IMG/VR virus record: IMGVR_UViG_3300042448_001253
Location: 32,001-96,000 of that record
Length of the DNA stretch: 64,000 bases
Reading direction: 5' to 3' (one strand)
Origin: a virus
Shown here: positions 1,844 through 64,000 of the stretch, piece by piece
Position numbering within the stretch: position 1 is the first letter of the stretch
Layout: the number at the start of each line of letters is the position of its first letter
Translations under genes and position numbers: made by a program
Notes under the pieces: generated by a model
Databases searched by the model: none
Told to the model about the DNA's origin: nothing
What the model saw: only the letters and a program-made list of their open reading frames with translations

Positions 1844-2236
1844 GTGACTCACCCTGACGGATTTAATTTGTCAGGATACAATCTTAACATGAAAGATTCT
1901 AGAAAAGGCGAGTCGCTTTGGTCTGAGTGGGACGGCTACGGCTACCCAAATAAGTTCGAAGACAGCTCACTCGTTTATTACACCTATGACCATGTTGATT
2001 TAGAGCACGAAGTAGTTAGGCGTGCCTTAGCGTCGTCCATCCAGCGAGACGGAATAGTATCCTCTCTAGGCGAAGCATTCAAGATGCTTGACTCTAGCTC
2101 CGTAGTGCAAGGATACGCTGGAGAAGTAAACGGAAACTACCACCTAACATTTTGCCAAGACGACGGCTCTACCATAAATGGTGATGAAGTTGCCGAGGTT
2201 CTGTACATTACTTTTGTAGAGGTGCGGGACGAGTGA
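1844..2236 (+). CDS. Hypothetical protein
   Basis: 130-aa acidic ORF in the operon, overlapping the WhiB start (GTGA). Confidence 0.6.
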   Translation: MTHPDGFNLSGYNLNMKDSRKGESLWSEWDGYGYPNKFEDSSLVYYTYDHVDLEHEVVRRALASSIQRDGIVSSLGEAFKMLDSSSVVQGYAGEVNGNYHLTFCQDDGSTINGDEVAEVLYITFVEVRDE

Positions 2237-2790
2237 CACTAAATCCTGACTGGTATGATGATGCCGAGTGCGGAAAAGCACAAAACAGAGACAAGATGGA
2301 ATTCTTTTTCTCTAACAATAAAAATGAGCAAGAGCAGGCTAAGAGCCTATGCTTTGCCTGCCCTGTAAGAAAAGAATGCATCAAGAGTGCTTTGGAAGAT
2401 AAGCAAATGTACGGCGTGTGGGGTGGCCTAGACCAGGGCGAGATGAGACGTACGTTGTCCATCAACTGGGAAGGTCAGGAGATGCGTAGAGGTAAGTACC
2501 CTATCTGTGCATACTGTGCGGCATCTACAATAAAACTAAAGACTAAAACAGTGAATAGACCTTCGGGAGGCCGATGGGCTACCATGCGTGTAGTGGAGTG
2601 CTCCAGTTGTAAGTTTGAGTGGCAGAGTAGAACCAGTGCAAATGCTGTAGACGCTTATCATGCTTGGCTTGCTGAGCGTTTGGCTAAAGCTGAGCGAGAT
2701 AAGATTAAAAATCAAAAGATTAGAGAAAAGAACAAGGCTAAGCAAGCAGCAAAAGACGCAAGAGCTGCTAGCAAAAAGAAACCTAGCTAA
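2233..2790 (+). CDS. whiB: WhiB-family transcription factor with C-terminal Zn-ribbon-like extension and basic tail
   Basis: W..DAEC...FFF...AKSLCFACPVRKEC...GVWGG gives the four WhiB cysteines plus G(V)WGG. Extra CAYC...CSSC motifs and a Lys-rich end. Confidence 0.9.
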   Translation: MTLNPDWYDDAECGKAQNRDKMEFFFSNNKNEQEQAKSLCFACPVRKECIKSALEDKQMYGVWGGLDQGEMRRTLSINWEGQEMRRGKYPICAYCAASTIKLKTKTVNRPSGGRWATMRVVECSSCKFEWQSRTSANAVDAYHAWLAERLAKAERDKIKNQKIREKNKAKQAAKDARAASKKKPS

Positions 2791-31996: not shown

Positions 31997-32356
31997 CTAC
32001 TCTTCTTCGGTTGAATTGATACCTTCGCCAGCTTTGTATGCTAGGTCAAACCATGTGTCTAGGTTGTCTCTGTTTAGTTCGCCTTTATCGAATAGATAGA
32101 CGGCTTCGTGCTCGTCATCGTAGTCGTCCGGAACGTCCTCAGGCTCATTGCCAGATGACTTATCCCAATTAAGAACGTAGCAGTCGCGTCCCTCAGTTAG
32201 GCTGTCGATAGTTTTTTGGTCAAAGACGGCTTCCCAGTCGTTGTCTTCCCTAATAGTCACTCCGATGAAAGTTACAAAAAACATTGCATCGATGCTACCG
32301 CTGTCTGGGTCTACATAGACATATAAATCAGAAGACCAGTTTGGTACGTTTGCCAT
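31997..32356 (-). CDS. Hypothetical acidic protein
   Basis: 119 aa with RBS AAGGA, in the operon. Confidence 0.65.
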   Translation of the reverse strand: MANVPNWSSDLYVYVDPDSGSIDAMFFVTFIGVTIREDNDWEAVFDQKTIDSLTEGRDCYVLNWDKSSGNEPEDVPDDYDDEHEAVYLFDKGELNRDNLDTWFDLAYKAGEGINSTEEE

Positions 32357-47661: not shown

Positions 47662-48021
47662 TTAGTCTCTGTTCGATGCTAAAGTCTTGTACGGATTCCA
47701 AGAACGGAGGCGTGAACCACATCCGCAAGAGGAATCACGCTTGAATGCAACCATCTTACCGGACTTTGTTACGAGTCTGTAGGTTGGGTCGTTCGGATGG
47801 TTAGTCAAAAACATGTCGTAGTCCTCTTGGAACACGATTTTTGGCCCTTCAGGGCTGTCAATGGCAACAATTACGGTGGTTTCAGTCAAAACTACCCTCG
47901 CAGTACCCACGTAGTAGACGTTTTCCTGCTCTGCGTTGGCATAAAGGGTCTCTATGTTGTCAACTACGCCCGGAGCGGCAAAAGTGGAGTGTGCAGGGAA
48001 AATATCCTCAATAATACGCAT
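47662..48021 (-). CDS. Hypothetical protein with C-terminal CGCG motif
   Basis: 119 aa, coupled to terL. Confidence 0.65.
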   Translation of the reverse strand: MRIIEDIFPAHSTFAAPGVVDNIETLYANAEQENVYYVGTARVVLTETTVIVAIDSPEGPKIVFQEDYDMFLTNHPNDPTYRLVTKSGKMVAFKRDSSCGCGSRLRSWNPYKTLASNRD

Positions 48022-49409
48022 TATCTGACCCTAAAAGTGCTGCTAGAACCTGGCATACGCCTGTTTGCCATCGATTTTGCCCTGATTTTGCCTCCTGAGA
48101 AGCCTGGTGGTGGCTTAATAAGCAGTGCAGTAAGGGCGTGAACGAGTGCATCGACTCGGTCAGGGGATTTTCCTTCGCCTGGAATCCATGTAATCATCTG
48201 AGTTTCGAGGTCCATCATCGAACGGCCGACGTGGTGGACTCTTTCTTGGTCGTAAGCCATCGTAATTGGCTCTGCACGGAGTGCTTTACCCTGTTTCGAG
48301 TGAACTTCGAGCACTTTGATGGTCGGGTCAATGGTATTGATAGCGTTTCTAACTAGTGCACCACCCTGATTTACCTCGGCAACAACAGGACAACCCCATT
48401 TACGGGCCATTTCAACGACTTTACGAGCCCAAACTTCAGGAGAACCGTGAATAGAAGCGTCTTCTAGAACCCAAGCGTTGCGTTTGTAAAGGTCATGTTC
48501 TGCTGTAGAGGCTACAACAACGATTCCGCACTCGTCTCTAGGGTTTTCAGCAACGGATGGGTCAACGCCGATTACACGCAAAGGTGTAGACATAGGGTAG
48601 GCAAAGTGTCTAGATGCCTCAATGGACTCTTCTGTCCACATCGCACCATCTCTAGCCTCAAGCATTTCACCGTAAAGCTCTTGACGAGCAAGGGCAGTAC
48701 CCTCGTAAACGCCGAGCATGGTGTCGAGGTAGGCTCCGGAGAGGTTTCCTGCGTTGTCCATGGTAGAACCCTTAGTAATGACAACCTTGCCATTTTTAGA
48801 TTCTTCAATAAGTTTGTAGAGTAGTGGGGTTCGCTTAGGGGTAGTTGTAACTAAAATCTTTGGCTGAGCACCAAGACGAGTTCCAACACGCAAGTTATCA
48901 AAAGCAGTCATACCTGCAGCATCCGGAGTTTGACGCCAAGCTGCAATCTCATCGCCCCATGCGTGAGTGAACTGAGGTCCACGGAGAGAGTCTGGTTCGT
49001 CAGCAGTAAATAGCGAGGCAACGTTTCCGTTCGGCCAGGTTAGGCGTCTCTTAGATGGCTCGTAGAGTGGACGTTCGCTGGGTGGGGTGACATTCATAAT
49101 ACCAGATTCACCTTCAACGATAACGTCTCGCACGTCTCCAGCAGTACGGGCAACGAGAGCAAAGCGTCGCTGACCAGTTGTAGTGTATCGAGCCTGTTCA
49201 CGCACCCATTCGGACGCTAGACGAGTCTTACCAAAACCACGACCTGCTAGTACAAGCCAGACGTTCCACTCACCTTCGGGTGCTTGCTGCTCAGGACGGC
49301 CCCAAACGGACCAGTCCCAGAGGAGTTGGTCTGGGTCCATGCCCGCAAGTATTTCGAAACGCTCTGCGTCTGGAAGTAGAGCGAGCTGCTCCATTATTGA
49401 TTTACCCAT
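48021..49409 (-). CDS. terL: Terminase large subunit
   Basis: Walker A AGRGFGKT, Walker B WGDE, TTTP coupling motif, RNase H-like GVDPS…SPDRVDALVHA. Confidence 0.95.
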   Translation of the reverse strand: MGKSIMEQLALLPDAERFEILAGMDPDQLLWDWSVWGRPEQQAPEGEWNVWLVLAGRGFGKTRLASEWVREQARYTTTGQRRFALVARTAGDVRDVIVEGESGIMNVTPPSERPLYEPSKRRLTWPNGNVASLFTADEPDSLRGPQFTHAWGDEIAAWRQTPDAAGMTAFDNLRVGTRLGAQPKILVTTTPKRTPLLYKLIEESKNGKVVITKGSTMDNAGNLSGAYLDTMLGVYEGTALARQELYGEMLEARDGAMWTEESIEASRHFAYPMSTPLRVIGVDPSVAENPRDECGIVVVASTAEHDLYKRNAWVLEDASIHGSPEVWARKVVEMARKWGCPVVAEVNQGGALVRNAINTIDPTIKVLEVHSKQGKALRAEPITMAYDQERVHHVGRSMMDLETQMITWIPGEGKSPDRVDALVHALTALLIKPPPGFSGGKIRAKSMANRRMPGSSSTFRVR

Positions 49410-49418
49410 AAGACTATC

Positions 49419-49709
49419 CTAATCTAGAACTACTTCTCCTAGAGGGCAGTAGTCAACGTTTTTAGATTGTCTGGAGAGAATAGCACCGTTGGTGTGATAC
49501 TGAACAGAGATAGTTAGGTCGTGTTCCCACAACTTAGCGTGTCTTGAATTAGAAACTCTGTCTCCGCAAACAGAACACTTGCCGAACCAGAGGGCGTTAT
49601 CTTTTCGGAACCCGTCCTCTGGGTTCATAACATCAAAGTTCAAACCTATTCCTCGTTCTCGAATATCTTGTTGAGGCAGAGAAAGAAGTTTGGCTGTATT
49701 GGTCAGCAT
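49419..49709 (-). CDS. Hypothetical protein (CxxC)
   Basis: 96 aa, coupled to its neighbours. Confidence 0.55.
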   Translation of the reverse strand: MLTNTAKLLSLPQQDIRERGIGLNFDVMNPEDGFRKDNALWFGKCSVCGDRVSNSRHAKLWEHDLTISVQYHTNGAILSRQSKNVDYCPLGEVVLD

Positions 49710-50290
49710 TATCTTAGGCGGTTCTCAGCAAGAATCGGGTTGTAAACCTTAGAGGTTGCGTTGATTGGCTTCTTGTATCCGTAGCGAACCAAGCGGAAAC
49801 GTAGAGCACCGTGGGTTACACCTAGACGCTTTGCAAGTCGGTAAAGGGTTACGCCTTCAACAACGTGAGCGTGGTTCAGAAGGGCTGTGTATTCTTCTGC
49901 CTCGGCACGGAACTTCTTACCATTCGAGCGAACCTGCTGAGCAAGTGGCTGTAGTTCTAGAAGGCGGGCTAAAGTCTCTGGAGTTGGCTCGATGTAGACA
50001 GGGCGGACACGCTCTGGCTTTACTGGAGGAGTAGGAATCGTGATTCCTGTGTCTAGAACCGCTGGGGTAATAGGAGTTGCGTTTGCAATCTGACGCACAC
50101 GTTCACGAGTCAGGTGGGTTGCAGCTGCAATAGCCTCAAGGGTCCAGTGCTGGTTGCGTAGTTCACGGATTAGTTGGTCTCTAGTGTCAGAGTCAATAAT
50201 GTCTTCGAACGCCTCAAAGATGTGCTGCGGCAGCATCTGGTTCTTTTTGATGTAGGCCGGGGTGGTGGCTGGGGTGGTAGTGATTGTCAT
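49709..50290 (-). CDS. Double helix-turn-helix DNA-binding protein
   Basis: WTLEAIAAATHLTRERVRQI and VTLYRLAKRLGVTHGALRFRL. Confidence 0.8.
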   Translation of the reverse strand: MTITTTPATTPAYIKKNQMLPQHIFEAFEDIIDSDTRDQLIRELRNQHWTLEAIAAATHLTRERVRQIANATPITPAVLDTGITIPTPPVKPERVRPVYIEPTPETLARLLELQPLAQQVRSNGKKFRAEAEEYTALLNHAHVVEGVTLYRLAKRLGVTHGALRFRLVRYGYKKPINATSKVYNPILAENRLR

Positions 50291-51903: not shown

Positions 51904-52410
51904 TTAGCGTTTTACGCGTTTTGACATTGCTCTGTAAGTGACTCCAGCAGCGTTAGCAAGCTCACGTATTGGCACTCCAGAAGTATAGAGGCGGACGCAT
52001 ATCCCTGTCAAACGGTCGTTGGCGACGGCTGCTGCAGAGGCGTTTGGCATCTTTGAGCGGTACTGGCGGGCAATAGGGGCGAGCTCCTGAATCAGGGTCA
52101 GCTCGTCCGGAAGAATGCCTGGAGATGCAGGACGTCTGGACTGGTAGCCGTCTGGGTGGGTGGCGTAGTTCGGAGATGGGAGTGGGGCAGGGGCTGGACG
52201 CTCAGAAGTTGGCAGTTGGTAGCGTAGGACCCAAGACCGGACGGTGGAGCGAGAGCGTGGAGGGGTAAGAGAGTCGCCGATAGATTGGAGAGTCCAGCCT
52301 TGGCGGTAGAGTTCGTTGGCTCTTTGAATAAGGGCATCTTGGTCGAGAGAGTTTAGATACTCTACTTCTTGCTGAGGGAGCGCTTGATTACGGGCGGGTC
52401 TTCTATCCAT
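51904..52410 (-). CDS. Double helix-turn-helix DNA-binding protein, paralogue of 49709-50290
   Basis: GWTLQSIGDSL…RSTVRSWV and GVPIRELANAAGVTYRAMSKRV. Confidence 0.8.
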   Translation of the reverse strand: MDRRPARNQALPQQEVEYLNSLDQDALIQRANELYRQGWTLQSIGDSLTPPRSRSTVRSWVLRYQLPTSERPAPAPLPSPNYATHPDGYQSRRPASPGILPDELTLIQELAPIARQYRSKMPNASAAAVANDRLTGICVRLYTSGVPIRELANAAGVTYRAMSKRVKR

Positions 52411-52799: not shown

Positions 52800-53450
52800 T
52801 AATCATTAGGACACAAACAACTTACACACATACAAAGTCATTAGGATACAAACAATTATTTACCAAGCACACACATACAAGCACACACAAATTAAAAACA
52901 CTTACCCGCATACAAACACATAAGCACACACAAACAAAAGAACACATACACACACCTAAGAACCTAAGCACATACACACCCAGACCAGACCAGACCCAAA
53001 CAAATTACAAACACATACACACATAGAAACCCAGACCAGACCAAACCCAACTGAACACAAGCACACACATACAAACCCTTATCCGCAAACACATACACAC
53101 ATACACACATACCCGCAAACAAAGCACACACCTAAACACATACCCGCACACACCTAGACACTTACACACAAGCACACACATAAGCCCCCGCCTATTCTGC
53201 CCAAAGCAACCCCATACAGAAACGCCCTAGAACGCCCATACAAGCCATTACCCCCTAGGACATACTTTCATACCAAGCCCCTTGAGTTAGTCCATTCTCA
53301 GCGATTTAGGGTTAAGCGGGAACAAATACCCCCAAACAACTTTACATAACTACACAACAAACAACTAAGCACACAAGCACACACAAACAACTAACCCGCA
53401 CAAAGCAAAACCCCCTAGCCAATGGCTAAGGGGATAAAGCTTAAGGGTTA
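52800..53450. other. Non-coding, strongly C/A-biased (G-poor on +) low-complexity region
   Basis: ACACACATAC, ACACACAAGC and CCAGACCAGA degenerate repeats; no ORF in the track. Confidence 0.8.
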
Positions 53451-53453
53451 GGG

Positions 53454-54035
53454 TTAGCCCCAGCAAACCCCCCAGCCCTTAGACTTAGCGAATTCGGCAA
53501 TCTCTCTAAGCATTTCCAATCTTTCCTGTAAGTAACCCGCAGGTCTAGCACCCTGCCAGAAAGTAGCAGTTGGCTCGTCATTGGCTTCGGCTTCAGCCAG
53601 CCCCGCAAGTAGTCCGCCTAATAGTCCGCCCTGCCCAGTGTAGTCAGCCCCAGTTAGTTTATAGGCGGGCATACCTTCATCGGCAGGGCTAATGGCTAGA
53701 GCAATAAGAACACGCCCTAAGAAATCATCGGCAGACATAGAACCGCAAAGGTCATCAGCAACATCAACGCCCAAAGTTTCTAGCACCATAGAAGCGTTAT
53801 GGTTAGACAGGTTAACTTCAGGAAAGTAGCCCGCAGGAGCAGGGATAAAGCAATCTCTATCTTCTAGGCAGTAGTCATTTACACAGCCAGAGATAACCGC
53901 ACCTGAACGCCCAGCCCTATACGCTGATAGATAGTCAGGATAAACTTCACTAGAAACCCAGTCCCCGCAAGCACAGGTTAGGTTGTGAGCAATAGAAACG
54001 CTTTCAGGTGTAGCAGGTGAAAAAGTAACAGACAT
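53454..54035 (-). CDS. Cassette ORF, hypothetical (193 aa)
   Basis: RBS GAAAGGGAG; own promoter-like upstream region. Confidence 0.75.
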   Translation of the reverse strand: MSVTFSPATPESVSIAHNLTCACGDWVSSEVYPDYLSAYRAGRSGAVISGCVNDYCLEDRDCFIPAPAGYFPEVNLSNHNASMVLETLGVDVADDLCGSMSADDFLGRVLIALAISPADEGMPAYKLTGADYTGQGGLLGGLLAGLAEAEANDEPTATFWQGARPAGYLQERLEMLREIAEFAKSKGWGVCWG

Positions 54036-54356
54036 TTTGGAACTCCCTTTCGCCCGAACCTTTCGGGCTTATGTAATAAGCCTACACTATCCGCAACTAA
54101 ATACAAGCAAATAAACAAAAATAAATAAATAATTTTTTAGCAATAAACGGGAACAAACTTGCCCCCCCCCTAATCTCAACAAACAACCGCACAAGCCCAA
54201 GCCCAGAACCTACACACAAGCCCGCAGACAAACACACAAGCCCCAGAACCTAAACCCGTAAGCAGACACCCAAACACCCAAACACCCCCAAACACCTAAA
54301 CCCCCAACTTCTCATTAAGCCCGCAAGGGTTAGCGTATTCATTTTTTCACAACTTC

Positions 54357-54460
54357 CAAAAACAAAAACAAAAACAAAAACAAAAACAAAAACAAAAACA
54401 AAAACAAAAACAAAAACAAAAACAAAAACAAAAACAAAAAACAAAAACAAAAAACAAAAC
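54357..54460. repeat. (CAAAAA)n microsatellite, about 17 units
   Basis: Read directly; lies between the inverted box and a terminator. Confidence 0.9.
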
Positions 54461-54524
54461 TGCCCGCAAACAAAAAAAGTTCCCCCGCACTTATGCGAGA
54501 GAACTTTTTACTTTTACTTAGTTA

Positions 54525-54662
54525 TTACTTTTTGTATTTGCGAACCGCAGACACATAAGCAATTCCGCCAACTACAAAAGTCAGCAACAAACCGCCACCA
54601 AGAATAGCAACGCCAAGCAGAACAAGTTCCGCAATCTTTCCAAGCAATTCAAAAGCAAACAT
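54525..54662 (-). CDS. Cassette ORF, small membrane protein (45 aa, not in the ORF track)
   Basis: MFAFELLGKIAELVLLGVAILGGGLLLTFVVGGIAYVSAVRKYKK*; RBS GAAAGGG. Confidence 0.7.
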   Translation of the reverse strand: MFAFELLGKIAELVLLGVAILGGGLLLTFVVGGIAYVSAVRKYKK

Positions 54663-54707
54663 CTTTAACCCTTTCGTAAAGTAGCAATCTATTTGATTAC
54701 TAATGTA

Positions 54708-54735
54708 ATCTTACCAAACTTAAGCCGTAAGTCAA
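54708..54735 (-). promoter_or_regulatory. Sigma70/HrdB-type promoter
   Basis: TTGACT-16-TAAGAT with extended TG. Confidence 0.75.
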
Positions 54736-54774
54736 TGACCAACATACCCGCAAATAAATCCAGTGAAAAAATGA

Positions 54775-54870
54775 ATACCCGCACAAACACCCGCACAAAC
54801 ACCCGCACAAACACCCGCACAAAATTACGCCCGCACACTTCCCCGCACACTTCCCCGCAAGCCCCTACAC
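54775..54870. repeat. Tandem 12-bp repeats (CCCGCACAAACA)x4, then (CCCGCACACTTC)-type copies
   Basis: Read directly. Confidence 0.8.
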
Positions 54871-55036
54871 ACATAAACGCCCCCTAATGCCCCTACAAGC
54901 CCCTAACCCCCTAAACCCTACATCTACCCGCCCGCACAACTGAACGCCCCTACACGCCCCGCACAAGCCCCCGCACACTTCCCCCGATTAAAAAGATAAC
55001 CCCCGCTTGTTAGGCGGGGGAAATCTTTAATGAACC

Positions 55037-55309
55037 CTAAACAATTACGATTGCGGGAACATCATCAGCAAAAGAACTTCGCTTAATCCAGTCGCCAATT
55101 TGAGCAACTTCATCACTAGCATCTTCCGCAACAACTTCACGCCATCTAGCCCCGCAACAATCGCAGTCGCCACTGCCATCAAAGTAAAGCCCATTACCAA
55201 GAGCAATCTTGTTAGCAGTTTCAGCATCATCAGCAGTTACTACAAACTGAATTGCTGGAGCGGTGTAATACCCGCCAGAATTATTCTGGATAAAAATAAA
55301 GTAAGCCAT
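55037..55309 (-). CDS. Cassette ORF, hypothetical with DCDCCG Cys cluster
   Basis: FIQNNSGGYY…GLYFDGSGDCDCCGARW; RBS GAAAGGGG. Confidence 0.75.
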   Translation of the reverse strand: MAYFIFIQNNSGGYYTAPAIQFVVTADDAETANKIALGNGLYFDGSGDCDCCGARWREVVAEDASDEVAQIGDWIKRSSFADDVPAIVIV

Positions 55310-55530
55310 AATTTCCCCTTTCGGAAATTCGTAATCAGCACTTCTGATTACATAAGAAGTTTACCATTAAATTTTCCAATTCCGCAAATCGCAATACCCG
55401 CATACAAATCTGGTGAAAAAATGAATACACCCGCAAGCCCGCCCGCAAAATAAAATCCTGCCCGCCGTAAGCCCGCCCGCTTAAATGCTTGACGGGGTTA
55501 GGTTGCCCTAACCCCGCAAGCCCGCCCGAC

Positions 55531-55848
55531 TTAGCGGAAGATGTTGATAATCACCTTGTAGGCGGTTGCTCTCTTTGTTGCTTCGTATGCTTCTGGAAAC
55601 AACTCCGCAAGTTTCTTGCTGTCGTTTGTGGTGCGTGTTCTCTCGTCAAGGCGAGCAACTTCTAGATTGCGGTGAGTTAGCAAAGTTGCTTCCCCGAACG
55701 CTTCCAAGATGTCTGCCTTAAGTTGTGTTTCTTCTTTCTCTAGGTTCGCAATCAACGCCTTAACTTCTGCGTAACGGGAAACCTTGTTAACTGTTTCAGT
55801 TGTAGCCTTAGCAGATACTACATCTGCGGTTTTTAAAATGGTAGCCAT
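55531..55848 (-). CDS. Cassette ORF, coiled-coil hypothetical (start adjusted to MATILK)
   Basis: RBS GAAAGGGG; promoter TTGACT-16-TACACT. Confidence 0.75.
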   Translation of the reverse strand: MATILKTADVVSAKATTETVNKVSRYAEVKALIANLEKEETQLKADILEAFGEATLLTHRNLEVARLDERTRTTNDSKKLAELFPEAYEATKRATAYKVIINIFR

Positions 55849-56186
55849 TTGGCGACCCCTTTCGTTTATCAAGGTTTCGGCGGTTGCTTCTAACTTCCCT
55901 TGATGTAATCAAGTGTATCAAAATCTGGCGGTAAGTCAAATCAAGACACACCCGCCCGCAACGAGTGTGAAAAAATGAATACACCCGCAAGCAACGCCCC
56001 CGCAACAACTCCAAGCCCCCGCATAAACCCTAAACACCTAAAAGCCCTTGTAAGCCCCTACAAGCCCCCGAAACTGCTCGCCCTAGTCCATACCCGTTTA
56101 GCAACAAAAGCCCGCCTATCCCCCTTACAAGCCCGCATAGAAGAAACGCCCTAACCTTTCGGCTAAGGCGTTCTCCTAGTTCTTGC

Positions 56187-56555
56187 TTAGTAATCGTAAC
56201 TCTCTGGCGATAGTGCGAACGCTTGCTCGCTGATTAGTTCGCTTATCTTGTTTAAGTTCTCGGCTAGGGTGCTAATTGCTTGCTTGGCATTGCTAATTGC
56301 TTGCTCTAGTTCTGGAGATAGCCCCAAAACTTCGCTGGCGTTGTCGCTGTCCCCATAGTGAGAGATTGGCAAGTCATTTACTAATTCCGCAACTGCTCTA
56401 ATCTCGTTGTAAATAACATCTAGTGCGTTGTTGTTCTGGCGTTCGCCTGTGTAGCCGTATAGACTTTCGCCCGAAAATAGCAAGTTAATTCGTGAAGCAT
56501 ACTTCTCTAAAAGAGAAGCGTTAAAACTTGGTGATACTTGGATAATTTCGTTCAT
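56187..56555 (-). CDS. Cassette ORF, helical hypothetical (start adjusted to MNEIIQ)
   Basis: RBS AAAGGG; promoter TTGCTT-16-TAGTAT. Confidence 0.7.
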   Translation of the reverse strand: MNEIIQVSPSFNASLLEKYASRINLLFSGESLYGYTGERQNNNALDVIYNEIRAVAELVNDLPISHYGDSDNASEVLGLSPELEQAISNAKQAISTLAENLNKISELISEQAFALSPESYDY

Positions 56556-56882
56556 AGTTGATAGCCCTTTATTAGTTGGTGAAACCACGCCCGCAAAAAA
56601 AGCAGGCGTGACAAAGCCCGAGACCACTTGGAGGTTTCTGTTTGACTTCATAAGTCAATACTACCACCCGCAAACTAAAAAGCAAGCATTTATCCAAAGA
56701 TTTATTTATTAGTTTTTAGGTTGCCCTAAGTCAGCCCAACTTCGCATTAAGCTAGTCGTGTCTTGTATTCATTTTTTCACAACCTATCCGCAAACAAAAA
56801 AAGCGGGTTGCCCACATAGCAAGCAATCCGCAAGCAAAAAACTCCCCCGCAAGTTGCGAGAGAGTTTGTTTGTTGTTGCGAA

Positions 56883-57158
56883 TTACTTAGGCAGTTTGTC
56901 CGTCAAGGTTATCAAGGCTAGGCGGTATGCTTCACGCTTCACATAGGCTTCGTGCTGACTTAGTGCTAAATAGTTAGCGTGTGTTTCGCTTCCGTCTGTT
57001 GCCCAAGTCTGTCTGTTGCTGGCTTCATCAATCCACTTGGCATACTTGTCCGCAACTCTGGCAATCGCCCTTGCTAAGTTATAAGTTGTCTCAACTTTGT
57101 AAATCTTCTTAATGACAAGTTCCGCATACTGCTCTGCTGTTAGGTTCATTAGTTCCAC
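56883..57158 (-). CDS. Cassette ORF, hypothetical
   Basis: 91 aa, overlaps the upstream ORF; RBS AAGGGAG. Confidence 0.7.
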   Translation of the reverse strand: MELMNLTAEQYAELVIKKIYKVETTYNLARAIARVADKYAKWIDEASNRQTWATDGSETHANYLALSQHEAYVKREAYRLALITLTDKLPK

Positions 57159-57325
57159 TCCCTTAGTGCCTTAGTTAGTTTGGCGTTGCGAGTTCTCGCA
57201 CGCTTGTCCGCCTTGTTGGCGTGAGTTCCGCTGGCGTTGCTTCTCGCACGCTGGCGAAGCAACTCCGCAAGCACGCTGGCTTCAGCGTTGCGAACGGCTT
57301 GATTGTTTCTGTCTAGTTTTGACAT
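57149..57325 (-). CDS. Cassette ORF, small basic protein (start adjusted to MSKLDR)
   Basis: RBS GAAAGGG; promoter TTGCTT-16-TAGACT; Arg/Lys-rich. Confidence 0.7.
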   Translation of the reverse strand: MSKLDRNNQAVRNAEASVLAELLRQRARSNASGTHANKADKRARTRNAKLTKALREWN

Positions 57326-57498
57326 CTTGACCCTTTCTTGTCTTAGGACAAGTCTACCAAAATCTAGGGAAAAAGCAAATCTCGCCCCGTGTCGCCCGTA
57401 AGCCTGTGAAAAAATGAATACGCACCCCGAACTCGCAAGCACTCGGCAAGCAAAAAAATAACCCCCTGAAAAATCAGGGGGATACTTTTTACTAAGGC

Positions 57499-57657
57499 TT
57501 AGTTTGAGTTTCCAACTACTTCCCAAGTGAACGGCTTGTCGCCCATAAGTTCCTTAGTTCTACGAATAATTTCTTCTGCCTTTTCCCAAGTGTGAACTTC
57601 ATAAATCGGGTGGACATTAGAAACTTCATCGTGAATAATTAGTGAATAGATGTTCAT
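57499..57657 (-). CDS. Cassette ORF, 52 aa (not in the ORF track)
   Basis: MNIYSLIIHDEVSNVHPIYEVHTWEKAEEIIRR…; RBS GAAAAGGA. Confidence 0.65.
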   Translation of the reverse strand: MNIYSLIIHDEVSNVHPIYEVHTWEKAEEIIRRTKELMGDKPFTWEVVGNSN

Positions 57658-57682
57658 TTGTTTTTCCTTTTCTTGTTTGTTT

Positions 57683-57892
57683 TTATTTAGGGTTTTTGAT
57701 TATCCAGAGAGCAACGGCAAAGGTGTTCACAAGTTCGCCTGTGTTTAGTTCGTTGCCGAACTTCCCACCAGAAACTTCGTAAGCGAACTTCGGTTCGCAC
57801 TTGACGCCAACGCCCCAAGATTGAGCCAATGCTAATGCTTCTAGGTTTAGGCGATTAGACTTCTTGCTAACGCCTGTTTTTCTTCTTGCCAT
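57683..57892 (-). CDS. Cassette ORF, hypothetical (start adjusted to MARRKT)
   Basis: RBS GAAAGGGA; -10 TATACT. Confidence 0.7.
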   Translation of the reverse strand: MARRKTGVSKKSNRLNLEALALAQSWGVGVKCEPKFAYEVSGGKFGNELNTGELVNTFAVALWIIKNPK

Positions 57893-58065
57893 TTTTCGTC
57901 CCTTTCGTTTATAGAATAAGTATACCACCACGCACCGACACGCACAACCCAACACACCTAGCCGTGACCTCTTGTGAAAAAATGAATACGCAACCCCAAC
58001 ACCACGCACCCGCAAGCAAAAGAAAATCCCCCCACAAAAGCAGGGGGACTTCCCGTAAGAATTAC

Positions 58066-58251
58066 TTATCTATTTCTACGCCTAATGAACACAGGCAGTT
58101 CCGCAATCGCAAGCACCAGAGCAACAGGTATCAGCAAGCCCGCAAGCCCTAGCCCGATTACAAAAGCCATTTCACTTCCGCCCACAAGCCCGTAATAGAA
58201 CCCGCAACCAGCAGACCAGACACCTAGCAACGCAAGCACGCCCTTAATCAT
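58066..58251 (-). CDS. Cassette ORF, two-TM membrane protein
   Basis: 61 aa, hydrophobic, overlaps the upstream ORF. Confidence 0.7.
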   Translation of the reverse strand: MIKGVLALLGVWSAGCGFYYGLVGGSEMAFVIGLGLAGLLIPVALVLAIAELPVFIRRRNR

Positions 58252-58462
58252 TTAGTCGCCTAACCTCAAACCAAGCACTAACCGCAAAAGCCAGCGTTAC
58301 GCCTACGCCAAAGAATAGACCTAAGTTCCAATAGTAGCCAGCAGTTTCACCGCTACCAGTGGCACTAAATGTAATCACAAATAAGCAGACCAGCGTATAA
58401 GCCAGAGCAACAGCAGGCACGATTACGATACCCGCAAGCAATCTCCTAAATACATACTTCAT
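58244..58462 (-). CDS. Cassette ORF, two-TM membrane protein
   Basis: 72 aa, hydrophobic; RBS GAAAGGGA. Confidence 0.7.
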   Translation of the reverse strand: MKYVFRRLLAGIVIVPAVALAYTLVCLFVITFSATGSGETAGYYWNLGLFFGVGVTLAFAVSAWFEVRRLND

Positions 58463-58648
58463 TTTTAATCCCTTTCCTAAGGTTGTAATACAATCTTACA
58501 CCCTAGACCCCAATTCACGCAATACCCCACCCGTAAGCGTGTTGCGGGTGAAAAAATGAATACTCCCCGTATAAAAATTACCGCAAGCAATCTGCCCGCA
58601 AGCAAGAAACTAGGCGAGTGTTTCCACCCGCCTAGTCCGCTTACTTAC

Positions 58649-58864
58649 TTAGAAACTCCACGCTCCAAAGTCAATGTCGCTAGCAATTCTTCTAGCATCA
58701 CTCCACGCACTTTCTCCGTAAAAGTATCTAACCTTGTTTGTGATTTTGTTTTCTACTTTCCAGTAGTCTTGCTCAAAGACGGCAGTCCCGTAAGAAACTC
58801 TCACTAGTCCGCTGTCGTAAGCAACTTCCCACTCCTGAACTAACTTGACACTTGGCTTAGCCAT
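58649..58864 (-). CDS. Cassette ORF, hypothetical (start adjusted to MAKPSV)
   Basis: RBS GAAAGGG; -10 TAAGAT. Confidence 0.7.
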   Translation of the reverse strand: MAKPSVKLVQEWEVAYDSGLVRVSYGTAVFEQDYWKVENKITNKVRYFYGESAWSDARRIASDIDFGAWSF

Positions 58865-58984
58865 TTGTCGCCCTTTCCGTTTAACTTCATAACCAATTTG
58901 ATTACATAGTAATCTTACCACCATTACCCGTAATCACCTAATCGCAACGGCAAAGCGATACCCCCTGTGAAAAAATGAATACAC

Positions 58985-59032
<48 letters not shown>

Positions 59033-59035
59033 GGG

Positions 59036-59067
59036 AAAAAAAAAAAAAACCCCCCATTGCTGGGGGG
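59036..59067 (-). terminator. Intrinsic terminator, representative of those ending each cassette
   Basis: CCCCCC-ATTGCT-GGGGGG with an A14 tract on + (U tract on -). Similar hairpins near 54990, 56150, 57470, 58030, 58610, 59575, 60010, 60385, 60845, 61380, 61860, 62515, 62930, 63355 and 63855. Confidence 0.8.
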
Positions 59068-59085
59068 AGAGTTTTAATTAAGGGT

Positions 59086-59433
59086 CTAGCCGAATACTAT
59101 TTCCCCGAACATCGCAACCTGAACAATTACATCTGCGTCTGTTGCGTCGTAATCAACATCACTAGGGTCTGCGATTAGTTGCTGGCAAACTGCCTTGGTT
59201 GCTGAATTAACTTTTACTTCACCGCTAGCAAGTCTCTTGCTGGCTTCGTATAGGTCTTGGTAAGTAACTGTCTTGTTAACTACGCCGGCGGTTTCATCTA
59301 CGCAATCGTCTAGCAAGGTGATTGAGTAGGTTTGGTTTGCTTCGTCGTGTGTTGCTGTTTCTGCCCAGTAGTCAATAGACATACCTGCGTCATCACAGAT
59401 AAAGCCTAGGACTTCTTTTAGTTCTGCGTTCAT
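59086..59433 (-). CDS. Cassette ORF, hypothetical acidic protein
   Basis: 115 aa, …DYDATDADVIVQVAMFGEIVFG; RBS AAGGGAG. Confidence 0.75.
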   Translation of the reverse strand: MNAELKEVLGFICDDAGMSIDYWAETATHDEANQTYSITLLDDCVDETAGVVNKTVTYQDLYEASKRLASGEVKVNSATKAVCQQLIADPSDVDYDATDADVIVQVAMFGEIVFG

Positions 59434-59479
59434 TGTTGCTCCCTTATTTGTGTTTCGTAATCATTTGATTACATAAGTA

Positions 59480-59508
59480 ATCTTACTCTCTTTATGTCCG
59501 CAAGTCAA
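59480..59508 (-). promoter_or_regulatory. Sigma70/HrdB-type promoter
   Basis: TTGACT-17-TAAGAT; box 26 bp upstream of the -35. Confidence 0.8.
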
Positions 59509-59602
59509 AACGACACGCCAGAGCCGTAAGGGCTGTGAAAAAATGAATACAGAATACCTAACCGCAAAACAACACCCTTTCGGGTGTCGCCTTGCTCGGT
59601 GG

Positions 59603-59863
59603 CTAGATGTCCTTTGCCAACGCCTTTGCTTCGCATTGGAGTTCGTAAACGCCAGATAGGAATTCGTCTGGGTGAGAGATGAAGCCCCCGCGAGTTGCTT
59701 CCAAGCGAGTTCCCTGTGTGAAGTTGTAGTCTTCGTCCCAGATGAGTTCCTTGCTTACTAGGTAGATAGTCCAGAAACCATCTACTTTGTAAAGGCGGTA
59801 GAACCCGTCTTCTGTCTTGTTGTAGCACTTGCCCAAGTCGCTTGCGTAAGTGGTGGTGGTCAT
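59603..59863 (-). CDS. Cassette ORF, hypothetical (start adjusted to MTTTTY)
   Basis: RBS GAAAGGGA. Confidence 0.7.
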   Translation of the reverse strand: MTTTTYASDLGKCYNKTEDGFYRLYKVDGFWTIYLVSKELIWDEDYNFTQGTRLEATRGGFISHPDEFLSGVYELQCEAKALAKDI

Positions 59864-59912
59864 TGTGTCCCTTTCGGTTTGGTGGAGCATTTATTTATTT
59901 AGTTATGACTAA

Positions 59913-59940
59913 ATTATAGTCGCTAATTTAAATAAGTCAA
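59913..59940 (-). promoter_or_regulatory. Sigma70/HrdB-type promoter
   Basis: TTGACT-16-TATAAT. Confidence 0.8.
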
Positions 59941-60050
59941 ATCGTAGAGAGTATTGGCGTGGCGGGGTGAAAAAATGAATACCCGCAACCTTTCACGCAA
60001 AAAAAAATAACCCCCCCACTTTCGCAGGGGAGTCATCTTTGTATTAGCGA

Positions 60051-60233
60051 CTAAAGGCTAACGCAGTTCTCGGCATCGCAGTTATCGCAATGGACAATAA
60101 CTTCATCGCTACCCCTTGACCCAACAGCGTCAACGCCATCGTGTTCGTGTTCGCACTTGTCGCACTCAAAGGACACTGTTAAAGCAACTTCGTCATCCCA
60201 AGGTGTCGCTAGTTTCCAATCATCGTAAGACAT
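60051..60233 (-). CDS. Cassette ORF, small Zn-ribbon protein (start adjusted to MSYDDW)
   Basis: CDKC…CDNC; RBS GAAAGGG. Confidence 0.7.
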   Translation of the reverse strand: MSYDDWKLATPWDDEVALTVSFECDKCEHEHDGVDAVGSRGSDEVIVHCDNCDAENCVSL

Positions 60234-60424
60234 CTCTGCCCTTTCCCACAAGAACCTTTCTTGCTTATAGCAAGTATACTACTCACCACCGACATACCAC
60301 AAATCAAACCACTACCCCGTGAGTAGCAGGTGAAAAAATGAATACAGGCGAAAACTCTGTGCGACCTTATAGACACAAATAAACCCCCTACTTCCGTAAG
60401 GGGCTTACCTGCTGTTGCTAACGC

Positions 60425-60706
60425 TTAGTCAGCGTATTCTTCCCAATGCTGTTCGCAGACCCACGGCATAGAGCCGTCAGGCATAGTTACATACCCGATA
60501 AAGTCCTTAGGGCAGAAGCCACAAGTTTCGGCTACCTTAGCCGCCACAGGCTTTACATTGCTAGGTCTTACAGATAGCAACGCCCCGTTAGCCTTGCGAA
60601 CAACCCACCAATCCGTATACCTTACAGGTGAAGACTTGTCTGCCAATGTAAAGATAGTGTTTCCACGACCCTTAACACGAACCTTAGTTCCAATCTCTAT
60701 GTTCAT
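60425..60706 (-). CDS. Cassette ORF, SH3/KOW-like domain plus Zn-finger-like motif
   Basis: IGTKVRVKG…; CGFC…CEQH. Confidence 0.7.
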   Translation of the reverse strand: MNIEIGTKVRVKGRGNTIFTLADKSSPVRYTDWWVVRKANGALLSVRPSNVKPVAAKVAETCGFCPKDFIGYVTMPDGSMPWVCEQHWEEYAD

Positions 60707-60878
60707 AATTCCCTTTACTAATCAGTAAGGAACTTTTCCTTACATAGCAAGGATACCACACAACCCCCGACAAACCAAACACCCCCACGACCAAGCGTGC
60801 CTAGGTGAAAAAATGAATACACACAGCGAACGGCAAAAACAAACAGCCAACTTTTCAGCTGGCTGTCTGCTTGTCGTG

Positions 60879-61217
60879 TTATCTGCTGAACTGCTCGTAT
60901 TGCTCTGCTGTTTCTCTTCTGTCGTGAATTGCTACGGCAAAGTGAGAAACGCCTGTTAGGGCTTCTACGGCTCTAGAGAAACGGCTGTCGCTGGTAGCCC
61001 CGTAAGTTCCGCCCATCATCTGAAAACCATCGGTAAAGTTATCCGCTGGAATAATGATTGCTGTCTTGCCGTAACCACGAACTAACTCGGCGGCTGGTGC
61101 TTCTGCTGTCGGCTCAAACGGACCTTCAACATTGATAAGTGTAACTTGCTTCTTGCCGTAAAATACGTTCATAGTGCTATCGTATTCGGCTCTGTAGATG
61201 CTAACAATAAGTCCCAT
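60879..61217 (-). CDS. Cassette ORF, hypothetical (start adjusted to MGLIVS)
   Basis: RBS AAGGG; promoter TTGCGT-17-TAAGAT. Confidence 0.7.
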   Translation of the reverse strand: MGLIVSIYRAEYDSTMNVFYGKKQVTLINVEGPFEPTAEAPAAELVRGYGKTAIIIPADNFTDGFQMMGGTYGATSDSRFSRAVEALTGVSHFAVAIHDRRETAEQYEQFSR

Positions 61218-61419
61218 CGGGGAACCCTTGCCCTCTCCTGTAACCCTCAGCCCCCTTGGCTTCCTGATTACAATAGTAATCTTACTCCTAACCACAGACA
61301 AACGCAAATCGTAGCCGAGCTCGGTATGTCGGGGTGAAAAAATGAATACACAATCCAGCCCCTCAACTTAAACACAAACGCCCCCTAACCTTTCGGCTAA
61401 GGGGTGTCGTGTTGCTAGA

Positions 61420-61719
61420 TTACTTAGGGCGACACTCGCTAAGTGGCTTAGGCGTGAACCCTAAATCTCTCTCTATGAGTGGAAGTTTCCCGCCCATAGC
61501 AGTTACGCTTGCCAACTCGGTTAGTGAGAAGTAGCCTAACTCGCTCTCAAAGCCGTTCACTAGCCCGAAGAACTGGTCCTGTCCGTCAAACTCAATTGCG
61601 AACCATTCCCAGTTTCCAGCGATAGAGAAGAACCTAACCTGTGCGATAGGGTCTTCGGTGTTTTCCTGTGAGTAAAGCGGTGGCAACTTGTCGGCAAGTG
61701 CCTTGGTTAGTAGTTTCAT
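61420..61719 (-). CDS. Cassette ORF, DUF2958-like protein (start adjusted to MKLLTK)
   Basis: LPPLYSQE…VRFF…WEWFAIE…FFGLV.G.E.ELGYFSLTEL…IERDL.F pattern. Confidence 0.75.
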   Translation of the reverse strand: MKLLTKALADKLPPLYSQENTEDPIAQVRFFSIAGNWEWFAIEFDGQDQFFGLVNGFESELGYFSLTELASVTAMGGKLPLIERDLGFTPKPLSECRPK

Positions 61720-61901
61720 TGTTTCCCTTTCAGCCGAACTTTTCGGCTTACTAGTAAGCATACTCTACACCCCCGACATTTCACAACTCCCACGCCCAAA
61801 GCCGTATGCGAGGTGAAAAAATGAATACACTCGCCCGTAACTTTTGATTAGCGAAATCCCCCCTGACTTTTATCAAGGGGGACTTTACTAACTGCTAGGC
61901 G

Positions 61902-62336
61902 TTAGACACGCTTGGCACAAACAGGACCAATCCCGTTCGCAACAGACTTAGGGTCTGTTAGCAAGATACCGCATACACAACACAGACCGGTTTCCACGCC
62001 AAACAACTTAGCCTGTTCCAAGGTCATTCTGTCGCCAGCGGTGAGTTTGTAGATTGCCCCCTTGTCGTATTCAAACCCGTTGATAAGGTCTAAACGCTTA
62101 GCGTATAGGTTGCCACTCTCTCGGCTCTTCTGGACCCTGTAAATGTCCCCGTTAGCCAACTGATACATACCAACAGACAAGGTTGCGACCTGCTTAGGTG
62201 CGTTGAGCAACTGCCCGATTAAATCACTAGCCCCCTTGCTAGTAAGGTTAGTGAAATCTACAGACCCAGAGAATACTCTGTCGCCTAGTAGTGAGTTAAT
62301 AAATGCGACCTGCTTATCGCTTGCGAGAACTGACAT
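61902..62336 (-). CDS. Cassette ORF with C-terminal DUF6011-like Zn motif
   Basis: ASDKQVAFINSL N-terminus; CCVCGILLTDPKSVANGIGPVC C-terminus. Confidence 0.7.
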   Translation of the reverse strand: MSVLASDKQVAFINSLLGDRVFSGSVDFTNLTSKGASDLIGQLLNAPKQVATLSVGMYQLANGDIYRVQKSRESGNLYAKRLDLINGFEYDKGAIYKLTAGDRMTLEQAKLFGVETGLCCVCGILLTDPKSVANGIGPVCAKRV

Positions 62337-62377
62337 TTGATACCCTTTCAGCCAGCCACCTTGGCTGGTCTAAGACC

Positions 62378-62406
62378 AGTATAGCCCCTGACTAATACAA
62401 AGTCAA
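62378..62406 (-). promoter_or_regulatory. Near-consensus sigma70/HrdB-type promoter
   Basis: TTGACT-17-TATACT. Confidence 0.85.
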
Positions 62407-62590
62407 ACACATACACAAACTTTATTTTCCGGAAAGCGACCCGTGTTAAGCTACGGCTCTTAGGTATTCATTTTTTCACCCAGCGACTCAACGGCACACT
62501 AGTTAAAAGTGAAACGCCCTGCTCGGTATGTTCACAAGCAAGGCGTTTCGTATTGACGGGGGAAAGGGGGGAATACCCCGCCAAATCTAT

Positions 62591-62725
62591 TTAGTTATCT
62601 TCTTCACTATCCCCGTTAATGAGTTGCTCTAAGGCGTGTAATGCTTCTTCTGCGTCAGTTGCTCCTGCGTGGAAGTCGCTGTAAATCGCCTTTACTGCTT
62701 TTGCTTCTGTGTCGCTTAGTTCCAT
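62591..62725 (-). CDS. Cassette ORF, 44-aa acidic peptide (start adjusted to MELSDT)
   Basis: RBS AAAGGGA. Confidence 0.6.
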   Translation of the reverse strand: MELSDTEAKAVKAIYSDFHAGATDAEEALHALEQLINGDSEEDN

Positions 62726-62957
62726 TTGTGTCCCTTTACTACTCTGTGGAACTGCTTTGCGGTAGGTGGAGAGCACTCTCCTCTGGCTACTCTTATCTAG
62801 TGCTAGACAGGCAGTATCAAGCGTTTTACTTGATACCTCTACCTTACCACATAACCACCGACAACCCAAACCAACCACGCAAATCCGTATTTCAGGTGAA
62901 AAAATGAATACGCACCAGCGAAACCGCAAATCCCCGCTGGAACGGGGAAGCGTGATT

Positions 62958-63206
62958 TTAAAGTTTGGTGAGTTTGTCGCCACTCCGCTTAAACTCTTGA
63001 CGGCAATCTTCGCAAACGCCTTCATCAGTATCAACTAGGCGAGCAACGGCTTCTTCGCCATTACAGACATCACACTCGCTACGGGAGAAATAGTCGTGAC
63101 CAAACGGAAAACGGGTGTAGCCCCGATAAGTTGTCCCCACTCCGTCAGTATCTACTGACTCAATAATAGTGTTTAGGGTGGTGGTTGAGCGGAAGAACTT
63201 AGACAT
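62958..63206 (-). CDS. Cassette ORF, Zn-finger-like (start adjusted to MSKFFR)
   Basis: CDVC…CEDC; RBS GAAAGGGGA; promoter TTGCTT-17-TAGACT. Confidence 0.7.
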   Translation of the reverse strand: MSKFFRSTTTLNTIIESVDTDGVGTTYRGYTRFPFGHDYFSRSECDVCNGEEAVARLVDTDEGVCEDCRQEFKRSGDKLTKL

Positions 63207-63385
63207 TTGGTATCCCCTTTCAAGAGATAGAATTAGTGCCAAGTCGAGCCTTGGCTACGCCAAGTCTAACACACTCCAAATCTAAAAGCAACATACGCCA
63301 CGAAGTCGTGTCCTAGGGCGAAAAAATGAATACACAAACCCGTAAAGCAAAACAACCAGCCTTTCGGCTGGCTGTCTGCTGGTTG

Positions 63386-63709
63386 CTAGGCTACAAGTTT
63401 CCAACCAAACTCGCTACACACATACTCTCTGCCGTCTATGGCAACTTTGTCGCCAACGCTTAGGGCTGTGTGTGGTCTGTTCTCTGGCATAACCGCTTGT
63501 AGTGCGTCCCAGAACTTACCCGCATAGTGATTTGTGTTGCTGAAAATAGCGTTACAGATTAGAACGTCGCCCTCTGGAAAATCAAACTCCAGCTCGGCTG
63601 TTGCGTTGCCCTTTACTTCGTAACCCTTGTTGATTAGGTCAAGGATAATTGTGTCCCTATCCTCGCCTAAGTATCCCTTTGAAACCCAAGTAATTTTGAT
63701 GTTAGACAC
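63386..63709 (-). CDS. Cassette ORF, hypothetical
   Basis: 107 aa, …HTALSVGDKVAIDGREYVCSEFGW; RBS GAGAGGG. Confidence 0.7.
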   Translation of the reverse strand: MSNIKITWVSKGYLGEDRDTIILDLINKGYEVKGNATAELEFDFPEGDVLICNAIFSNTNHYAGKFWDALQAVMPENRPHTALSVGDKVAIDGREYVCSEFGWKLVA

Positions 63710-63893
63710 CTAAACCACCCTCTCTGTAATCAGGCACCTTGCCGTTTTGATTACATAGTAATCCTACTACACAACTACGACATTTTCCAAATCGCCACAC
63801 TTTGCCGTGTAGTCTTGTGAAAAAATGAATACATACATTTACGATACAAACTAACCCCGCAAGTCTAAACTCGCAGGGTCAGTTCAGGTCAGC

Positions 63894-64000
63894 CTACTCG
63901 CAACCGCAGGTCAAGCCCCACTCGGACACAGGTTCCATTTCGCAATCTGAGCAGTAAGGCTCTTCAATCTCAAAGTAGTCCTTTACGAAGAAGTCTTTAG
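63894..64000 (-). CDS. Partial cassette ORF (3' end), Cys-rich
   Basis: …KDYFEIEEPYCSDCEMEPVSEWGLTCGCE*, followed by a hairpin; the array continues beyond the window. Confidence 0.6.
   Translation of the reverse strand, partial: KDFFVKDYFEIEEPYCSDCEMEPVSEWGLTCGCE

Follow-up and report, generated by a model that had tools for sequence, protein, structure and literature searches.

An invariant 16-bp box upstream of host-type promoters marks the small-gene cassettes of a WhiB-encoding actinophage and its relatives

In Cluster A mycobacteriophages, which are temperate, stoperators occur throughout the genome, inside transcription units, and block elongation, and one true operator overlaps the early lytic promoter. 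The SPO1 host-takeover module and the SPO1/SP82 early promoters have phased curved DNA upstream. Class I CRP sites are found at -61.5, -71.5, -82.5 and -92.5. In T4-type phages, repeated modules of a terminator and an early promoter, the PeSL elements, flank small unknown genes in hyperplastic regions (Arbiol et al. 2010, PMC2839356; Comeau et al. 2014, PMC4122927), and where related phages differ by indels or replacements, the breakpoints map to this module (PMC2839356, PMC4122927). Here we analyze a 64,000-nucleotide stretch of the IMG/VR virus record IMGVR_UViG_3300042448_001253 (positions 32,001 to 96,000, referred to as the window), from a siphovirus-type, WhiB-encoding actinophage of uncultured lake source, in which 19 small transcription units are each marked by the 16-bp box GTATTCATTTTTTCAC. 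We judge the chance to be even that this box is a protein-bound, helical-face-dependent upstream element which co-controls the array and is also the crossover point for cassette exchange, and we regard the box array as a variant of PeSL-like mobile regulatory cassettes with a class-I-like geometry.

As in the PeSL regions, promoter and terminator modules stand in front of small unknown genes, with only three of the 20 open reading frames (ORFs) of the array matching a Pfam family (DUF6011, DUF2958 and DUF7296, all three of unknown function), and rearrangement breakpoints fall in the repeated module, here at five of five junctions (see below). Excised mini-circles arising from recombination of adjacent modules are a further hallmark of PeSL elements. 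The shared part is a different one. PeSL elements share a sigma70 promoter, an AT-rich upstream stretch and a stem-loop, whereas the units of the array share a 16-mer while their promoters diverge. The box is moreover sharply bounded, lies two helical turns upstream of the -35 and is held in phase, and it belongs to a siphovirus-type actinophage of unrelated sequence and not to a T4-type myovirus. An earlier sequence-only reading of the window had named PeSL elements and stoperators as precedents that differ in sequence and geometry, and the differences in shared part, position and phasing are upheld by the present analysis.

The box is present in 18 exact copies and one variant (A to G, box 63318-63333) between positions 54335 and 63832. 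Sixteen copies lie on the minus (coding) strand and three on the plus strand (54335, 56765 and 62464), and there is one box for each of the 19 transcription units. Shuffled sequence yields 0.06 copies on average and at most one, and the remaining approximately 53 kb of the window (positions 1 to 54334) contains none. Conservation amounts to 2 bits per position within the box and drops to approximately 0 to 0.3 bits directly outside it. The motif scan thus reproduces the count given in the sequence-only reading, and the loss of information at the box edges agrees with its statement that the flanks diverge while the box stays. The box is asymmetric, without an inverted-repeat core, and not palindromic. 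Promoters and hairpins vary from cassette to cassette, so that the common sequence is a separate upstream box. No paper describing it turned up in a literature search, which covered the motif strings as well as repeated actinophage promoter motifs, and an Rfam scan of 52-64 kb matched no family.

Each unit of the array (53454-64000, minus strand) consists of a terminator, the box, a sigmaA-type promoter with an extended -10, a 5' hairpin, a GAAAGG ribosome-binding site and one or two small ORFs. The boxes and the repeats that adjoin them are listed below from the window end; all promoters are predicted, and d is the distance in bp from the box end to the -35.

63817-63832, minus: direct box, d = 26; -35 TTGGAA 63785-63790, -10 TAGGAT 63761-63766; gene 63386-63709
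63318-63333, minus: direct variant box (…TTCGC), d = 26; -35 TTGCTT 63286-63291, -10 TAGACT 63263-63268; gene 62958-63206
62896-62911, minus: direct box, d = 26; -35 TTGGGT 62864-62869, -10 TAAGGT 62841-62846; gene 62591-62725
62464-62479, plus: inverted box, 57 bp upstream of TTGACT 62401-62406 and TATACT 62378-62383; gene 61902-62336 (DUF6011)
61813-61828, minus: direct box, d = 26; -35 TTGTGA 61781-61786, -10 TATGCT 61757-61762; gene 61420-61719 (DUF2958)
61334-61349, minus: direct box, d = 26; -35 TTGCGT 61302-61307, -10 TAAGAT 61279-61284; gene 60879-61217
60805-60820, minus: direct box, d = 26; -35 TTGGTT 60773-60778, -10 TATCCT 60750-60755; gene 60425-60706
60330-60345, minus: direct box, d = 27; -35 TTGTGG 60297-60302, -10 TATACT 60273-60278; gene 60051-60233
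59967-59982, minus: direct box, d = 26; -35 TTGACT 59935-59940, -10 TATAAT 59913-59918; gene 59603-59863
59535-59550, minus: direct box, d = 26; -35 TTGACT 59503-59508, -10 TAAGAT 59480-59485; gene 59086-59433
58988-59049: 62-nt T run (homopolymer), adjoining box 58967-58982 upstream
58967-58982, minus: direct box, d = 25; weak -35 TTAGGT 58936-58941, -10 TAAGAT 58912-58917; gene 58649-58864
58548-58563, minus: direct box, d = 25; -35 TTGCGT 58517-58522, -10 TAAGAT 58493-58498; genes 58244-58462 and 58066-58230, both hydrophobic
57974-57989, minus: direct box, d = 26; -35 TTGTGC 57942-57947, -10 TATACT 57919-57924; genes 57683-57892 and 57499-57657
57406-57421, minus: direct box, d = 27; -35 TTGCTT 57373-57378, -10 TAGACT 57351-57356; genes 57149-57325 and 56883-57149
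56765-56780, plus: inverted box, 79 bp upstream of a modest TTGCTT 56680-56685 and TAGTAT 56658-56663; gene 56187-56555
55967-55982, minus: direct box, d = 27; -35 TTGACT 55934-55939, -10 TACACT 55912-55917; gene 55531-55848
55413-55428, minus: direct box, d = 25; -35 TTGCGG 55382-55387, -10 TAAACT 55358-55363; gene 55037-55309 (DUF7296)
54777-54823: 12-mer repeated 3.9 times, adjoining box 54763-54778 upstream
54763-54778, minus: direct box, d = 27; -35 TTGACT 54730-54735, -10 TAAGAT 54708-54713; gene 54525-54662
54357-54459: (CAAAAA)x17 repeat, flanking box 54335-54350
54335-54350, plus: inverted box, no convincing promoter within 130 bp; next gene 53454-54035

In all 16 direct copies the box ends 25-27 bp from the -35, which is of the TTG type except for the weak hexamer at 58967, and the -10 of the box promoters is extended (TGnTAnnnT). 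Promoter scoring gave exactly the distances of the sequence-only reading, including the weak -35. When the search was left unconstrained, taking the best-scoring promoter in the 150 nt after each box, this promoter was found at 25-27 bp for 13 of the 16 window copies and for 54 of the 113 non-identical direct copies pooled from window and relatives, while random anchors gave a flat distribution. In the aligned promoters the TG at -3/-2 of the -10 hexamer carries 1.0 and 0.9 bits. Since TG was not included in the search model, it is independent evidence that these are genuine promoters with an extended -10, belonging to the housekeeping sigma type. Terminator-like sites are enriched approximately 3-fold (41 compared with 12.4 ± 3.5 in shuffles), GAAAGG-type ribosome-binding sites precede 22 small ORFs and three units carry two ORFs, in line with the unit structure described before. 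The box itself is placed in the non-transcribed spacer, after the upstream terminator and ahead of the start site, and stays clear of every -35 and -10 element; with a start site taken to be 7 nt downstream of the predicted -10, it spans approximately -77 to -62. Between box and -35 the tetramer CACG is enriched 7- to 9-fold and tends to end 13-17 bp before the -35.

Some side observations concern the same promoters. A strict sigma70 consensus scan of 53400-64000 gave six promoter-like sites, fewer than the 11.4 in shuffles, and the box-linked -35 hexamers mostly keep TTG alone, the promoters depending on TGn and TAnnnT. Many of them have a short palindrome beginning in the -10, e.g. GATTAC-tat-GTAATC. 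The heptamer TTGCGGG occurs 30 times in the window (5.3 expected), 25 of these in or beside the terminase-proximal half of the array (53100-60000, minus strand). With few exceptions these are on the coding strand, and they frequently lie directly ahead of a box or within a promoter spacer; the similar TCTGCGGT or TGTCGGTGG is located between -35 and -10 in relatives. The slippage-prone simple repeats adjoining three boxes (54357-54459, 54777-54823 and 58988-59049) may be real hypervariable tracts or assembly artefacts.

The distribution of the box was analyzed in the 80 closest of 436 loci encoding a relative of the terminase, and in four related records (G001 to G004, two of them near-complete). 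Several IMG/VR contigs have multiple copies of the exact 16-mer, the rest of their cassette DNA being for the most part unrelated to that of the window, and among the 80 loci those reaching far enough upstream carry genome-specific variants (GTATTCA…, GTATTCG…, GTATTTA…, with GTATCCACTTTTTGA and GCATTTTTCATTT among the more distant forms). The core among IMG/VR relatives is GTATT[CT][AG]TTTTTT, and that common to all variants is the T-rich TTYRTTTTT. A motif scan of relatives, which the sequence-only reading had suggested as a check, thus finds the same system in many of them. In whole-record scans all copies are confined to one small-gene block just upstream of the terminase module, 41 in the 93%-complete G001 (49.9-78.6 kb) and 15 in the complete G003 (131.4-145.1 kb), among small accessory genes only and never before replication or structural genes. 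The arrays of relatives are 14-29 kb long, which agrees with the view that the present array would run on past the window end. The 127-bp direct terminal repeat ('DTR') of the complete relative is a circular-assembly overlap and gives no genome ends, and a location of the array at a physical genome end was rejected.

By terminase identity the nearest named phage is the Actinomycetia phage DSL-LC01 (71%), metagenome-assembled from Dishui Lake (PMC10611076), followed by large Microbacterium and Gordonia phages. We found no cultured close relative. Two relatives in culture, Microbacterium phage Zooman and Gordonia phage GodonK, lack a comparable box, and no match was obtained when the array was compared by megablast with 50,697 GenBank phages. 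In species-representative prokaryote genomes the box followed by N24-28 and TTG gave 76 scattered single hits, none of them actinobacterial and none multi-copy, so that neither a host regulon nor prophage copies were found in these genomes. As a side observation, DSL-LC01 (L187, OQ999401) has in 24.8-43.3 kb 16 exact copies of a different motif, CTAAAGATGTTAT, which covers the -10 and one arm of the 5' hairpin and is not an upstream box; different lineages may keep different parts of the promoter module constant.

The distance between box and promoter is not free to vary in the relatives either. In phages with the window variant it is 25-27 bp, and in those with the CG or TA variant the spacings cluster at 29, 37-39, 46-50 and 58 bp, in steps of approximately 10.5 bp. 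Rayleigh tests gave R = 0.64 (p approximately 1e-6, n = 33) for the CG/TA-variant relatives and R = 0.43-0.49 (p 6e-4 to 7e-5, n = 40) for the full arrays of G001 and G003, these p-values being approximate since the genomes are related and the promoters are predicted and not mapped. Inverted and direct boxes have the same phase (6.0 and 5.9, respectively, at a period of 10.5). The ten inverted copies of G001 likewise precede promoters, by 31-59 bp and with the phase of the direct copies, and in the window the inverted box 62464, 57 bp from the strongest promoter of the region, falls into the phase class of 26, 37, 48 and 58. For box 56765 the promoter score is only 7.6 and the phase assignment weak. 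Spacings approximately 10.5 bp apart are characteristic of a site which has to face RNA polymerase, and the phasing points to a helical-face-dependent upstream promoter element.

At approximately -70, -81, -91 and -101, the permitted box centres are similar to the positions of class I activators. The site is beyond -60 and moves in one-turn steps (25-29, 37-39, 46-50 and 58 bp, period approximately 10-11 bp), and with class I sites and the p4 site of phi29 it shares the placement upstream of the -35 at positions one helical turn apart. It differs from class I sites in not being a palindrome, in being used in both orientations in G001, and in that the identical site serves approximately 20-40 promoters of one phage.

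The evidence for cassette exchange comes from comparison of relatives. IMG/VR contigs 3300020042_009668 and 3300027763_000248 have 26 ORFs in common, which are collinear apart from three moved cassettes and several indels, and all five non-collinear junctions are within the 16-mer, with homology blocks overlapping by 15-19 nt, i.e. the box. The window and G001 have seven array ORFs in common in scrambled order (Spearman -0.61), and with other relatives the window has only one or two in common. Cassette content and order therefore vary between relatives with breakpoints at the box, as the sequence-only reading would have it, and its suggestion of a recombination point is strengthened, short of proof. 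In the four related records no tyrosine integrase (PF00589) and no RecT or ERF family member was matched, and a resolvase match was obtained in G001 only, being absent from the complete G003. This makes short-homology exchange, as proposed for PeSL elements, the likeliest route. As a side observation, an HNH-endonuclease-like ORF lies inside the array of L026 (7803-8258; IMG/VR 3300046096_000285) and has an inverted 13-bp box core inside its coding sequence (8114-8129), which may be chance or a hint of a box-associated homing nuclease.

In the mechanism that we propose, a sequence-specific protein, more probably of phage than of host origin, would bind the box at about -77 to -62 from the inferred start. 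Facing a promoter of the host sigmaA type (TTG -35, TGn extended -10) from a fixed side of the helix, it would touch or wrap RNA polymerase from the box much like a class I activator, which contacts the C-terminal domain of the polymerase alpha subunit (alpha-CTD), and CACG would be a weaker second element filling the gap where the alpha-CTD would lie. All 19 window units, like the 15-41 sites of each near-complete related genome, would come under one control, presumably early, and we favor boosting of transcription over shut-off, only slightly. Since the box is the sole sequence common to otherwise unrelated cassettes, it would be a microhomology patch for insertion, loss and transposition, and an incoming gene would arrive already wired to the common control. 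That one factor co-regulates the array from about -62 to -77 had been suggested before; the geometry and the steps of about 10.5 bp speak for it, and the helix-turn-helix (HTH) recognition helices, which stay unchanged when the box changes, speak against.

Several observations weigh against this mechanism. Promoters with TTG and an extended -10 may be strong without any activator, and the orientation independence in G001 is more in keeping with bending or wrapping than with a directional contact between proteins. Box positions 14-16 are invariant in the window and free in G001 and G004, so part of the invariance may reflect homogenisation by recombination and not selection for binding. The phasing statistics are approximate, as given above, and no box-binding protein was identified. 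With recognition helices that are invariant across box variants, either none of three HTH candidates reads the variable positions or these positions are unread.

The three candidates rejected on this ground are the tandem-HTH proteins 49709-50290 and 51904-52410, and an XRE protein encoded in the array of relatives. A tandem excisionase-like HTH protein at the operon head of relatives varies in step with the box (seven loci, four informative genomes); it was also rejected, as two CA-box phages share its helix residues and four genomes cannot be separated from phylogeny. The two tandem-HTH proteins are paralogous, lie just upstream of the terminase and are highly conserved in relatives, and the first HTH of 49709-50290 (LTRERVRQI) is similar to sigma70 region 4.2, scoring above the Pfam cut-off for Sigma70_r4; the pair could represent a small terminase subunit or proteins that bind -35-like DNA. 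A second motif, AACTTC-N-AACG, is present three to five times per locus upstream of the arrays in L277, L278, L281 and L282, and an operator-like palindrome, AACTTC-N4-GAAGTT, adjoins the -35 in L119 and L139; the AACTTC motif may belong to the excisionase-like HTH proteins encoded there. The WhiB-domain protein of the window (2233-2790, plus strand) points to an actinobacterial host. Its domain covers residues 7-73 and is followed by approximately 110 residues without a family match, which could be a DNA-binding or polymerase-binding extension, and its orthologues in G001, G002 and G003 are 55-61% identical. The large genes of the phage are all on one strand; among them are tail genes, the gene of the terminase large subunit (48021-49409) and that of a large virion protein which has both ADP-ribosyltransferase and exonuclease domains.

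The same sites could instead be repressor or silencer sites, where a phage protein occupying all boxes holds or blocks polymerase in a late shut-off of the array; we consider this unlikely. The action of phi29 p4 at promoter A2c and the stoperators are parallels for shut-off. Geometry and restriction to a single regulon would be the same as for activation, and promoters that look intrinsically strong make negative control plausible. Like the stoperators, the box is an asymmetric site of 13-16 bp with tens of copies in short intergenic gaps, mostly in one orientation and with a genome-specific consensus. However, roadblock stoperators need no promoter phasing and act in transcribed DNA, whereas the box is limited to one array, phased to promoters and located between terminator and start, clear of every -35 and -10. 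Stoperator phages are temperate and have an immunity repressor and an integrase, whereas PF00589 is unmatched in the four related records; together with the lack of box copies in actinobacterial species-representative genomes this argues against a temperate immunity system.

If instead no dedicated protein exists, the T6 tract and its flanks would form a bent or UP-like element read by host alpha-CTD or a nucleoid protein. Phase dependence accompanied by orientation independence fits such an element, as does the T-rich core of all variants, and early promoters must work before any phage protein exists. In SPO1, too, many small genes each have a strong host-type promoter and a terminator, with rotation-dependent A/T tracts upstream; we know of no invariant 16-mer in the SPO1/SP82 early promoters and of no described role of theirs in exchange junctions. 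What makes this explanation quite unlikely in our view is that within each genome the non-T positions (GTATTCA) show no variation at all while closely related phages bear different variants, and that species-representative genomes hold neither multi-copy nor actinobacterial matches. The box is also beyond the usual UP position of -40 to -60, an interval which here carries CACG and is not A/T-rich.

A box that is chiefly a recombination substrate, i.e. a PeSL-like homology patch whose link to the promoter is historical because the two travel together, would account for junctions exactly in the box, for the scrambled cassette order and high turnover, and for within-genome identity reaching positions that are free in other genomes, as gene conversion would give. 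We find it very doubtful, since a patch alone sets no distance or phase, and the 26-bp spacer is near-random in sequence and yet constant in length to within 1 bp or whole turns.

T7-type promoters abut the start sites of middle or late genes, and attC sites are imperfect inverted repeats with an adjacent tyrosine integrase and promoterless cassettes. That the box is a promoter served by a polymerase or sigma factor of the phage, or an attC site of the integron kind cut by a site-specific recombinase, is hardly credible: the box is uniform within and different between genomes like T7-type promoters and like integron attC and Vibrio cholerae repeats, and the array consists of mostly single-gene cassettes as in integrons, but the T7-type polymerase family PF00940 is unmatched in the four related records (as it is in the control genomes, which were equally silent), no tyrosine integrase was found there and a resolvase in G001 only, the box has no inverted-repeat core and never precedes replication or structural genes, and every cassette has its own promoter and terminator.

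Returning to the protein-bound, phase-dependent element that is also a crossover point, a bolder version can be formulated, in which the box is the selected dual-purpose address of a recombinase-free gene-cassette bank, uniting transcription control with a preferred crossover point, and genes captured at a box from a co-infecting relative are expressed at once within the regulon. We regard this version as rather improbable. If true, it would be a phage counterpart of the integron for accessory, host-takeover or anti-defence genes, and the genome-specific box variants would act as compatibility groups limiting exchange.

Large freshwater actinophages are abundant and most of their genes are of unknown function, and with the box an accessory-gene array of 15-30 kb can be delimited easily in metagenomes, together with its promoters. 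The box promoters could also supply portable co-regulated parts for actinobacterial engineering. For Actinobacteria, where upstream activation is poorly known, the box gives a concrete hypothesis of phase-dependent control of the host RNA polymerase, and the array is a clear example outside the T4-type phages of a regulatory sequence doubling as a joint for modular gene exchange.

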